A DNA stretch of 64,000 bases from an uncultured delta proteobacterium. GTDB taxonomy: Bacteria; Desulfobacterota; Binatia; UBA9968. The position numbers were made by a program, and so were the translations under genes. Of the stretch, positions 45,108 through 47,320 are shown in pieces. Within the stretch, counting starts at the first letter, position 1. Every line of letters begins with the position of its first letter. Below the pieces are notes generated by a model, which had not been told where the DNA came from, did no database searches, and saw nothing but the letters and a program-made list of their open reading frames with translations. The DNA lies in the NCBI GenBank assembly GCA_963745835.1, contig CAVUZH010000013.1:352001-416000 (forward strand). Reading direction: 5' to 3'.

Positions 45108-45130
45108 TAACCCCGGTTCGGCTGGGGTTA
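45108..45130 (+). terminator. Probable terminator after the UbiD gene
   Basis: TAACCCC...GGGGTTA stem followed by the AT-rich AAATTTTAATTT. Confidence 0.5.
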
Positions 45131-45190
45131 AAATTTTAATTTACCGCCCGGCTATCCGTATGCCCTTCTCCCCCTCGCATGCGCTAGCAT

Positions 45191-45220
45191 TTGACAGGGC
45201 GATTCATCATCGGCTAACCT
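45191..45220 (+). promoter_or_regulatory. Sigma70-type promoter of the amidase-actin unit
   Basis: TTGACA-18 nt-TAACCT, about 20 nt before the ORF. Confidence 0.6.
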
Positions 45221-45241
45221 TGCACATCTTCGATCCTTTCT

Positions 45242-46282
45242 TTGAATGATCAGTCAAGCTACCTCAGTCGAATGGCCAGCATAGAGCAGGACAAACTCCG
45301 CCTCCTCAGGGGCGCAGTCCAAGACAACGTTGACCTGCTGCGCGGAATCCGAACCCATACTCGGAGCCGCCATCGAAAAATCGAAGGACCCTGGATATGG
45401 AGTCCGTTTTTACTAGCCGTTCTCGCAATTCTCTGGCAGGCTTCGCCGGTCATCTCGACCAGGCCCACGGCTACACCACAGGATGCCAAAGCGGACACCA
45501 AACAGGCTCAAGCGATGGCTCAATTCGGTGCGCTGGAAGTTCAAACACCGGCACTCACGCCGCATCCGCTCGATCGCGCGGTTATTCCGCTCGGGGTTAA
45601 GAGAATCGTCATCGATGCCGGTCACGGCGGCAAGCAGCCGGGGGCGATATCCGAATCCGGTGTCTCCGAGAAGGACATCACCTTGGACATTGCGCTCCGT
45701 GTGCACCGCCTCCTTGACAACGCGCCATTCGAAGTCTTGATGACGCGTCAAGATGACCGAACTATGACGCTGGAGAAAAGAGTCGCGTTCGCTAACTCGA
45801 ACCGAGCGGATCTTTTTATTTCAATCCATATCAACTGGACCGAACCGCGCGAGATTCGTCCGTTGGAAACCTACTTCGTCGGGCCCAGTGACGACCCGGC
45901 AACGATTAAATTGGCGAGCATGGAAAACCAGGAATCCGGCTATTCATTATCGGAGTACCGACGGGTGTTGGAAAAAATCTATATCGATACGCGACGCGAT
46001 GAATCTCGCAGTCTGGCCAAGAACATCCATGCAGAATTGTACCAAGCCCTCAAAGCGGTAAATCCGACGCTGGACAATCGAGGTGTTAGAACGGCGCCCT
46101 TTTTAGTTCTCGTCGGCACGGAGATGCCGGCTATACTCCTCGAAGTCTCGAGCCTGTCAAACGAAGAAGAAGTAGAGTTGTTGATAGACCCCGATTACCG
46201 GGAAAAAATCGCGCTGGCGGTATCCAGAGGAATTGGCAGCTACGCGAGCAATCTTAATAGGTCAGCTGAGAAAGGTAGCTAA
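45242..46282 (+). CDS. N-acetylmuramoyl-L-alanine amidase (Amidase_3) with N-terminal membrane anchor
   Basis: Zn-binding and catalytic motifs IDAGHGG, EKDITL, SIHIN and LLEVS; hydrophobic WIWSPFLLAVLAILW after a charged leader. Start is TTG 45242 or ATG 45272. Confidence 0.9.
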   Translation: MNDQSSYLSRMASIEQDKLRLLRGAVQDNVDLLRGIRTHTRSRHRKIEGPWIWSPFLLAVLAILWQASPVISTRPTATPQDAKADTKQAQAMAQFGALEVQTPALTPHPLDRAVIPLGVKRIVIDAGHGGKQPGAISESGVSEKDITLDIALRVHRLLDNAPFEVLMTRQDDRTMTLEKRVAFANSNRADLFISIHINWTEPREIRPLETYFVGPSDDPATIKLASMENQESGYSLSEYRRVLEKIYIDTRRDESRSLAKNIHAELYQALKAVNPTLDNRGVRTAPFLVLVGTEMPAILLEVSSLSNEEEVELLIDPDYREKIALAVSRGIGSYASNLNRSAEKGS

Positions 46283-46288
46283 ACGTCA

Positions 46289-47320
46289 ATGGAAGAAACA
46301 AATGATACACTTTGCGTCGGAATCGATCTCGGCACCTCGCGGAGTTCCATTTCGGCATCCAACGGCGAGCGCCACGTAATCGACAGTTATGTCGGTTGGC
46401 CGCTCGATATGGTCGCGCGCAAGCTGATCCAAAAACCGATTCTTGTCGGTCGTGAAGCATTGGATAGTCGTTCGATGCTGGATCTTCGCCGTCCCATGGA
46501 GCGCGGCTTGATCAAGGATGGATCAAAAAAGGACGAAGAAGCCGTCCAGGAGATCCTCCGGCATTTGATCACGCAGACCGGCTTGAAACAGAAAAATAAG
46601 ACGCGTTCAAAGGTTCGCGCCGTGGTCGGCGTGCCCGCGGAGGCTTTCAGGAATAGCAAACAGCGCTTGCGTAGTGCCATGGAGGGGGTGGCCGACAGCG
46701 TCATGTTGGTGTCCGAACCCTTCGCTGTAGCGTACGGATTAGAAGCTTTACTGCACGCCCTTATTATTGATATCGGTGCGGGAACGGCTGACTTTTGCGT
46801 GATGCAAGGGCGTTATCCGACCGAGGAAGACCAAAGAACCTTACCCAATGCCGGCGACTCGATTGACGAACAACTGCTGAAATTAGTGCGCGAGCACCAT
46901 CCCGAAGCGCAAACTTCGATTCATATGATTCGTGAATGGAAGGAGAAATGGAGCTTTGTCGGTGAGGCGAAACAACCGGTTTTAGTTTCTGTTCCGGTCA
47001 AGGGGAAGGCCACCGATTTGGATGTCACCGCGGAGATGCGCGCCGCCTGCGAAAGCATCTTAGCGCCCGTTTGTGAAACCATGTTGGACCTGCTCACCAG
47101 AGTCGAGCCCGAATACCAAGCGAAGGTTCGCAATAATGTTATTCTCGCCGGCGGCACTTCGCTCATCGTTGGACTGAGCCAAGCAATTGAGCAGGCGCTG
47201 GCCGAGCTCGGTGGCGGCCACGCCACGGTTGTTAAAGATCCGGTTTTCGCGGGTTCCGATGGCGGCCTGGCGATCGCCCAGGATGCATCGAGCTCGGATT
47301 GGGAAAAGTTGTCACTTTAG
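46289..47320 (+). CDS. MamK-like actin-family ATPase
   Basis: Phosphate-1 GIDLGTS, SYVGWP.D, VVGVPA, VSEPFAVAYG, phosphate-2 IDIGAGTADFC, P..EDQ.TL..AG, KEKWSFVG, PEYQ, adenosine LAGG, VKDPVF. The pattern matches MamK (VSEPFMVGYG, PEDQVTL, PEYQ, VKDPTF, recalled from memory) rather than MreB. Confidence 0.88.
   Translation: MEETNDTLCVGIDLGTSRSSISASNGERHVIDSYVGWPLDMVARKLIQKPILVGREALDSRSMLDLRRPMERGLIKDGSKKDEEAVQEILRHLITQTGLKQKNKTRSKVRAVVGVPAEAFRNSKQRLRSAMEGVADSVMLVSEPFAVAYGLEALLHALIIDIGAGTADFCVMQGRYPTEEDQRTLPNAGDSIDEQLLKLVREHHPEAQTSIHMIREWKEKWSFVGEAKQPVLVSVPVKGKATDLDVTAEMRAACESILAPVCETMLDLLTRVEPEYQAKVRNNVILAGGTSLIVGLSQAIEQALAELGGGHATVVKDPVFAGSDGGLAIAQDASSSDWEKLSL

Follow-up and report, generated by a model that had tools for sequence, protein, structure and literature searches.

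The stretch analysed here, 64,000 nucleotides of a contig (CAVUZH010000013.1) from an uncultured delta proteobacterium and called the window in what follows, contains two plus-strand genes that encode an Amidase_3-type peptidoglycan amidase and, six bases further on, an actin-like ATPase of the MamK family. In the relatives that make up two sister clades of this actin the amidase is found directly upstream wherever upstream DNA is available, and the far N-terminus of the amidase carries a conserved motif that structure prediction places in a groove of the actin. These results suggest that a cytoplasmic filament may steer a wall hydrolase from inside the cell. As open reading frames (ORFs), the amidase occupies 45242..46282 (+), with 346 amino acids from a TTG codon, and the actin 46289..47320 (+), with 343 amino acids. 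The ATG at 45272 is more likely to be the start of the amidase than the TTG at 45242, because relatives begin there and because the conserved motif lies 7 residues after that methionine in most members of the window's clade; residue numbers of the amidase are counted from this ATG. The locus comprises the following features:

45272..46282, plus strand: amidase gene, 336 amino acids from the ATG; an in-frame TTG alternative lies at 45242 and the start was picked from relatives
45293..45331, plus strand: conserved tail motif KLRLLRGAVQDNV, residues 8-20 from the ATG, within the predicted helix 2-23; predicted actin-docking helix
45392..45454, plus strand: hydrophobic helix WIWSPFLLAVLAILWQASPVI, residues 41-61, following a basic stretch; probably an uncleaved signal anchor, N-terminus inside
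45455..45589, plus strand: linker, residues 62-106, modelled with low confidence and poorly conserved; predicted local distance difference test score (pLDDT) <50 over residues 59-95
45590..46270, plus strand: Amidase_3 catalytic domain, residues 107-333, with H118, E133, H186 and E291 invariant
45881-46054, plus strand: insert in the catalytic domain, residues 204-261, at the position of the AmiA/B/C regulatory segment
46283..46288, no strand: spacer of six bases between both genes
46289..47320, plus strand: MamK-family actin-like ATPase of an amidase-linked subfamily, 343 amino acids
45108..45130, plus strand: terminator-like hairpin of 10 pairs and then AAATTTTAAT, after the upstream UbiD-like gene
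45186..45224, plus strand: conserved upstream block containing TTGACA-N18-TAACCT; candidate promoter or operator of the pair

The first-pass annotation of the window had described a two-gene unit with its genes 6 bp apart and a convergent short-chain dehydrogenase/reductase (SDR) gene downstream, and had asked whether homologs keep the amidase as neighbour. Both genes, the spacer and the SDR gene are present as described, and the neighbour is kept: of 131 related loci, 128 have the amidase immediately before the actin, and three lack upstream DNA. Within the window's clade, whose actins are 61-100% identical to that of the window, this holds for 50 of 51 loci, and the remaining locus starts at the actin; the titles of these loci name Binatia, Rokubacteria/Methylomirabilota and Acidobacteriota/Thermoanaerobaculia, besides a few others. 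A sister family, reached through its representative P0124, has the amidase upstream in 78 of 80 loci, with no upstream DNA in the other two, and occurs in Desulfobulbaceae, Nitrospirota, Aminicenantes, Chrysiogenales, and Alpha- and Gammaproteobacteria. The spacing between the two genes in relatives is mostly between -14 and +39 bases, and some of the carriers have no metagenome-assembled label, for instance Delta proteobacterium NaphS2 and Thermodesulfobacteriota bacterium B35. Pairwise identities of the actin and of the amidase catalytic domain were strongly correlated (r = 0.92 over 68 loci; none of 2000 Mantel permutations reached as high a value), also within clades (0.89 and 0.91). Judged from these comparisons, both genes have travelled together.

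The picture changes at the next clade out, the P0130 family of Planctomycetota (L170-L249), in which none of 80 loci has an amidase neighbour and a different ORF is conserved upstream. At 57 of 77 of these loci the upstream same-strand ORFs group in a single cluster, made up of a coiled-coil family together with sequences of another kind; members of the coiled-coil family begin with a short helix of the form M..L...L..hR, a pattern unlike that of the amidase tail, and of two upstream ORFs that were scanned, one had no Pfam match and the other a sub-threshold spectrin-repeat match. This ORF may be another actin partner. Separate observations concern individual carriers of the amidase-actin pair. 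The actin is split in two pieces at L050, and both actin and amidase are split at L053, where frameshifts, decay or assembly indels may be responsible; a genome of the window's family (G918) holds two actin copies, 79% and 77% identical to the window protein, on different contigs. Some Binatia have a small ORF after the actin (L007:2156-2515, L010:2301-2612, L011:6743-7090, L039:7071-7445), encoding about 103-124 amino acids with one hydrophobic helix and a charged helical tail; at some Binatia loci the added ORF, of a membrane/coiled-coil kind, is 119 amino acids long. The small ORF is not in the window, where the SDR gene converges on the pair instead.

The amidase matches Amidase_3 (PF01520) with 166 bits against a cut-off of 27, and the Pfam scan returned no other domain in it, hence no AMIN or LysM, which agrees with the original description of an intact Amidase_3 protein devoid of both. 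Against the spore-cortex amidase model CwlD (TIGR02883) it scored 118.4 bits, under the cut-off of 221.55. Residues H118, E133, H186 and E291, which we take to be the zinc ligands and the catalytic glutamate, are invariant in 68 amidase sequences. The catalytic domain aligns unbroken and end to end with E. coli AmiA (8c2o) and Bartonella AmiB (3ne8), residues 204-261 included; with CwlV, which is without this segment, the alignment splits in two pieces around the insert. The AlphaFold model (mean pLDDT 80.5) shows a helix at residues 2-23, a low-confidence basic segment, a helix at 44-56, a disordered linker and a confident catalytic domain at 111-333, in which the insert 204-261 is modelled as helices 209-219 and 226-235. 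The best fold match of this model is AmiA 8c2o (template modelling score 0.82-0.87 by target). These results indicate that the protein is probably an AmiA/B/C-type enzyme that has kept the autoinhibitory insert, and with such an insert apparently retained in the catalytic domain, the enzyme probably still needs release of autoinhibition. SPOR domains bind glycan strands stripped by amidases, and in some lineages a third gene after the actin encodes a receiver domain and a C-terminal SPOR domain (L091:7052-8023, L099:7034-8284, L104:4652-5818), which agrees with the amidase being truly active where the module operates. Immediately behind the actin, L118:7038-8246 is also a SPOR-like ORF, seen with a narrow SPOR profile only; that profile, made from three sequences, gave three qualifying loci (L091, L099 and L118) and is too insensitive for absence to be counted.

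All relatives of the amidase share one plan, consisting of an N-terminal helix, a basic stretch, one hydrophobic helix, a variable linker (30-124 amino acids, with no conservation) and the catalytic domain. In the window protein, the charged leader IEQDKLRLLRGAVQDNVDLLRG and the hydrophobic helix that follows it are both present, as had been claimed. Among relatives the region before the hydrophobic helix measures 36-112 residues (median 44) and the median net charge is +4 before the helix and 0 after it. An A-x-A sequence follows the helix in 15 of 98 relatives, and a strict motif of the twin-arginine translocation (Tat) type is found in 1 of 98. By these heuristics the topology check that had been proposed comes out on the side of a membrane protein: the helix is a probable uncleaved signal anchor with the N-terminus in the cytoplasm, not a signal peptide.

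The downstream gene had been described as a MamK-like actin carrying all actin motifs. As to the motifs this is correct, since 69 relatives without exception share D13, G15, T16, D161, G163-T166 and G288, and nearly all of them E143; we take these residues to be the actin nucleotide-binding motifs. The nearest solved structures are also those of MamK (5jyg/5ljv, E ~1e-73), followed by BeeR (8r2n, 5e-39) and MreB (1e-10), and residues 6-341 align with MamK 5jyg. The family assignment had to be narrowed. The actin scored 373.6 bits on the NCBIfam MamK model NF040964, under the cut-off of 400, on which members of the sister clade reach 417-431 bits (over the cut-off) and cluster-encoded MamK about 546. 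It gave 215.2 bits on the BeeR model NF053558 (cut-off 530), with a match that starts at residue 8 and thus without a BeeR-type N-terminal extension, and 69.3 bits on the MreB model (cut-off 293). A tree of 98 rows (IQ-TREE quick search, with Shimodaira-Hasegawa-like approximate likelihood ratio test, SH-aLRT, support only and no bootstrap) joined the two amidase-linked clades (SH-aLRT 100 and 98) on one side of a branch (93.7; 39 rows), apart from the clade that holds five cluster-encoded MamK proteins (19 rows, SH-aLRT 98) and from a long-stemmed BeeR-like clade (SH-aLRT 100). No match at E <= 1e-10 was obtained in 72,556 plasmid and 50,697 phage records. On the basis of scores and tree, the actin is a member of a distinct amidase-linked sister subfamily and not a magnetosome-type MamK, and it groups with neither MreB nor the plasmid Alp proteins. 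Source records name its near relatives 'rod shape-determining protein MreB'. The idea that the locus offers a clue to non-magnetosome functions of MamK loses much of its force, because an actin of a sister subfamily says little about MamK proper.

Two other groups of sequences turned up in this survey. Many of the MamK-family representatives P0136-P0168 are proteins of 523-1232 amino acids with a C-terminal actin domain behind a long N-terminal extension; no Pfam domain was detected in the extensions of 10 out of 10 scanned, and the subset included in the tree forms a well-supported clade. P0001, a relative of 455 amino acids that is 79% identical over 75% of the query, has an extra FtsA-type Pfam match and may be a longer or fused form, or a misassembly.

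The claim that the pair lies outside any magnetosome gene cluster was extended from the window to the genome, an assembly of 7.28 Mb in 25 contigs with 97.1% completeness and 9.3% contamination. It holds one MamK-like gene and one MreB gene. Genome-wide, MamA, MamE, MamI, MamP and MamQ gave no match over cut-off, and no search was aimed at mad and mms genes. The weak matches of the MamA, MamE, MamP and MamQ type are generic TPR, HtrA, PDZ and LemA proteins, seen in control genomes too, and MamI gave none. As a positive control, a canonical MamK (about 546 bits) was located in a genome of another order, where MamH, I, E, J, K, L, M, O, Q and B were confirmed in its neighbourhood. When all 21 same-strand ORFs of that 20-kb mamAB stretch were compared with the window genome by tblastn, the only hits were MamK (37% identity) and partial generic matches, namely the MamE protease domain, a CDF transporter (26%), MamO, a TPR protein and a LemA-like protein (23.5%). 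Thus, the absence of these mam genes holds across the 97.1%-complete assembly, and no full magnetosome cluster was found elsewhere in it. Because the genome also has an ordinary, separate amidase of 528 amino acids with an AMIN domain (contig C14) and its own mreB with mreC adjoining (contig C19), the pair is an extra system; the eight M23/LytM-domain genes of the genome do not adjoin it. Outside this genome, neither of two loci with P0153 relatives is in a magnetosome cluster. The actin at L056:6859-7896 scores 495.6 bits on the MamK model and is nevertheless encoded beside ATP synthase a and c subunits, hemL and rimO, next to a TPR protein that is weakly MamA-like (92.7 vs 200), so that high-scoring 'MamK' proteins occur also outside magnetosome clusters.

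The best conserved part of the amidase outside its catalytic domain is the motif at the far N-terminus. It lies in the very N-terminal helix and reads K-x-x-[ILV]-L-[RKQ]-[GE]-[AV]-[VY]-x-[DE]-N-[LVI], corresponding to KLRLLRGAVQDNV in the window protein. Conservation of the leader, which had been suggested as a check, is borne out: the pattern matches 98 of 116 complete leaders, and the other 18 are mostly near-misses by eye, two being truncated or broken rows. In the 69 leaders that were aligned, Asn19 occurs without exception. We then have the prediction of the contact itself. Co-folding of the actin with tail residues 1-40, each with its own alignment of 69 rows, gave interaction prediction scores from aligned errors (ipSAE) of 0.85, 0.86 and 0.85, compared with 0.00 for the best of three controls. 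The runs share at least 77% of their contacts, with a partner pLDDT of 67-68. Of solved complexes, 58 of 80 reach the mark that the pair passes, as do 2 of 110 mismatched pairs; these counts are only roughly valid here since own alignments were used. On the amidase side the contacts involve residues 4, 7-20, 22-23 and 25, that is, the conserved motif, with the invariant Asn19 against actin residues 139-140. On the actin side they involve residues 121-128, 139-155, 174-176 and 329-341, which from actin anatomy we take to be the groove between subdomains IA and IIA, on the barbed-end side. This co-fold supports binding of the tail to the actin and does not show it.

We therefore consider how such a contact could work. 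According to the model that we favour, both genes would work as one operon-like module, in which an actin-like filament of the cytoplasm is linked to a peptidoglycan amidase of the periplasm. The N-terminus of the inserted amidase would lie in the cytoplasm, where the first ~23 residues would form an amphipathic helix bearing the conserved motif, and this helix would dock into the IA/IIA groove of the MamK-like actin. The actin would polymerise under the membrane in an ATP-dependent manner and, through the contact with the tail, the polymer would gather, place or move the amidase, so that the site of wall cleavage would be dictated by the cytoskeleton. In this arrangement the cytoplasmic tail would replace the wall-binding AMIN domain that targets ordinary AmiB/AmiC-type amidases, and activation would probably still require relief of the AmiA/B/C-type insert. 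The core of this proposal, namely that the tail lets the filament hold, place or move the amidase, is in our judgement rather probable. The first-pass annotation had proposed that a filament positions a bitopic wall hydrolase through its leader; the pairing, the motif and the predicted contact speak for the link to the leader, and the word 'positions' is to be read as conditional, since the predicted site is the barbed-end groove and end-binding or control of polymerisation is equally open. We put forward more tentatively, and lean slightly against, a fuller form of the same idea. In it, the pair would be a minimal cytomotive wall machine, in which the MamK-type polymer grips the amidase tail at the barbed-end groove as ParM grips ParR, and carries or confines the hydrolase in the plane of the membrane. 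The position of the cut would then be set inside the cell without a wall-binding domain, and MreB and FtsA would be joined by the pair as a third actin-based system of the wall, which gene transfer would have carried to at least eight named phylum-level lineages.

Several results weigh against the favoured model. Conservation at the predicted interface does not exceed that of the remaining actin (a value as low was obtained for 2051 of 10000 random sets) and the core of the groove, V141, F145, Y149, L154 and G174, is common to canonical MamK. Taken together, these two results mean that no partner-specific co-variation is present at the predicted actin interface, and that the groove is a family feature, possibly a polymer contact, rather than a partner-specific surface. 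Co-fold models also readily dock amphipathic helices into hydrophobic grooves, and the topology call rests on heuristics, that is, length, charge bias, A-x-A and Tat motif. No third gene is conserved across the 131 loci. As regards expression, contigs from four RNA libraries (soil or sediment studies) match portions of the two genes with 95-99% identity, uncovered stretches carrying no meaning; none of them bridges the amidase-actin junction with 31 nt on each side, and DNA carry-over is possible. Finally, the module was present in 39 of 401 sampled genomes of the window's class, a count that includes the unpublished G937 and G947, and in 2 of 20 families. It was found in all 4 genomes of the window's genus, in 33 of 63 of its family and in 5 of 55 of one other family, and 18 families had none. 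In a sample of the phylum it was found in 4 of 301 genomes; this sample held few near kin, and the class-level count is more informative. Such patchiness implies that the module is dispensable. In the tree, rows titled Rokubacteria and Syntrophobacteraceae nest among Binatia rows, which together with the patchiness points to horizontal transfer of an accessory module.

The alternative that survives best keeps the contact and reverses its sense: the tail would act on the filament, as ParR does. Clustered tails would bind monomers or barbed ends and nucleate, cap or membrane-anchor the polymer, whose real task would lie elsewhere (cell shape or another cargo), or else insertional growth would push the amidase cluster. 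The predicted site, in the IA/IIA groove on the barbed-end side, speaks for such an activity, and the conservation of the groove core across the whole MamK family is as expected of an additional polymer contact. Against it stand the invariant catalytic residues, which indicate that the amidase is not a mere anchor, and the lack of any other conserved cargo gene beside the pair; the co-fold, made with an actin monomer, cannot separate side-binding from end-binding. We regard it as unlikely, with a real chance of being right.

A second alternative does without contact. Amidase and actin would merely be co-expressed for the same process, for example division or daughter-cell separation, and the N-terminal helix would bind the membrane, a divisome protein or a regulator. 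It is true that adjacency alone is no proof of binding, that a passed co-fold gives support only and that the interface lacks partner-specific conservation. However, the pairing is near-universal with very short or overlapping spacing, the two proteins diverge in step, and the amidase is lost exactly where the actin clade changes. The co-fold score of 0.85 against 0.00 in controls, with contacts on the conserved motif and its invariant Asn, speaks against it too. For these reasons we hold the absence of contact to be improbable.

We give still less weight to the notion of a long N-terminal Sec or Tat signal peptide, cleavage of which would leave a soluble mature amidase in the periplasm with no filament contact. 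E. coli AmiA and AmiC are exported via Tat, and 56 of 98 relatives have an RR pair within 15 residues before the helix; RR is missing from the window protein, the scarcity of A-x-A and strict Tat motifs given above does not fit cleavage or Tat export, and neither do the 36-112 residues ahead of the helix or the fact that conservation outside the catalytic domain is highest at the far N-terminus. Such a signal peptide is very improbable. It is scarcely credible that the actin gene is a magnetosome mamK, stray or relic, or encodes a segregation actin of plasmid or phage origin, and came to lie beside an amidase by chance, in spite of its MamK-family sequence and a patchy distribution that does not follow taxonomy, given the results for MamA, E, I, P and Q and the mamAB tblastn, the clade separate from cluster-encoded MamK, the lack of plasmid or phage matches and the metabolic flanks.

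These flanks consist of unrelated metabolic genes, an amidohydrolase and a UbiD-like decarboxylase upstream and the convergent SDR downstream. An upstream hairpin insulating the pair had been proposed, and the scan did detect one at 45108-45130; such sites number 4 compared with 3.4 in shuffled sequences, i.e. they are not enriched here. The hairpin is accordingly a candidate for separating the pair from upstream transcription. The promoter assigned to the pair, TTGACA (45191)-N18-TAACCT, is present, and the scan did not call it as a sigma-70 site because the -10 hexamer matches 3 of 6 positions only. In 6 of 6 relatives, whose flanks have diverged, the block 45186-45224 is conserved throughout, and its conserved pattern, GCATTTGACAG..C..TT.ATCATCGGCTAAC.TTGC, includes the spacer. 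Since this conservation exceeds the needs of a plain sigma-70 promoter, the block may also be an operator, and it is a credible regulatory site.

Bacterial actins are known to direct the synthesis of the wall (MreB) and division (FtsA) by way of adaptor chains only, and amidases are known to be targeted from outside by AMIN domains and LytM activators. If the favoured model is true, a hydrolase with its own cytoplasmic actin handle would provide direct inside-to-outside control of wall cleavage, and a function would be assigned to a large and widespread branch of the MamK family that is now recorded under the name 'rod shape-determining protein MreB'. Consisting of two genes and a 13-residue motif whose Asn is invariant, the module is small, and the idea is directly testable because some of its carriers are not metagenome-labelled. 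No description of an amidase paired with a MamK-like actin was found in the literature searched, which left subscription journals largely outside, and the word 'amidase' is absent from the text of the BeeR paper (PMC11929497). What was found there on operons of actin-like filaments and amidases is work on ParM, in one case with the amidase as a mere neighbour in a figure legend.

The pair can be compared with several known systems. In the MreB-RodZ and FtsA-FtsN systems, an actin homologue lies beneath the membrane and directs peptidoglycan enzymes on the outer side, and a bitopic protein touches it with its cytoplasmic N-terminal part; the link to hydrolases is indirect, via synthases, SPOR/FtsN and FtsEX-EnvC. 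In contrast, the hydrolase of the present pair is predicted to carry the cytoplasmic tail itself. With the amidases AmiA, AmiB and AmiC and their LytM activators (8c2o, 3ne8, 4bin, 8c0j), the window amidase shares the catalytic fold and probably the regulatory insert. Unlike them, it has neither an AMIN domain nor a convincing Tat signal and possesses a conserved, predicted-cytoplasmic helix, a membrane anchor and an obligatory actin neighbour. For the actin, the closest characterised protein in sequence and structure is MamK of Magnetospirillum with its adaptor MamJ (37% identity to a cluster-encoded MamK); the two share the actin ATPase motifs and the groove residues. MamK is encoded within mamH-I-E-J-K-L-M-N-O-P-A-Q-R-B and has an acidic adaptor protein as partner, whereas the window actin lies in a separate clade, in a genome with no mam genes over cut-off, beside a wall amidase. 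BeeR, a three-stranded tubular actin of Verrucomicrobiota (8r2n), is like the window actin a relative of MamK in non-magnetotactic bacteria, in which such relatives occur according to PMC11929497; it is more distant, forms the long-stemmed clade and has a disordered N-terminal extension of 30-50 residues that is absent here.

The ParM-ParR-parC system offers a parallel for the predicted contact. The ParM polymer is recognised at its barbed-end side by a short helical peptide of the partner ParR, as described in PMC6599009, and the co-fold predicts the same kind of site here. The partner of ParM is a DNA-binding adaptor, while that of the window actin is a membrane enzyme, and the genes of the pair are chromosomal, have no plasmid or phage match and belong to another sequence family. 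By analogy with R1 ParR, the amidase tail may attach to monomers or to the ends of filaments instead of their sides. All in all, these comparisons and the predicted contact suggest that the pair is a variant of cytoskeleton-guided wall remodelling, and an as yet undescribed way to steer wall cleavage from inside the cell.

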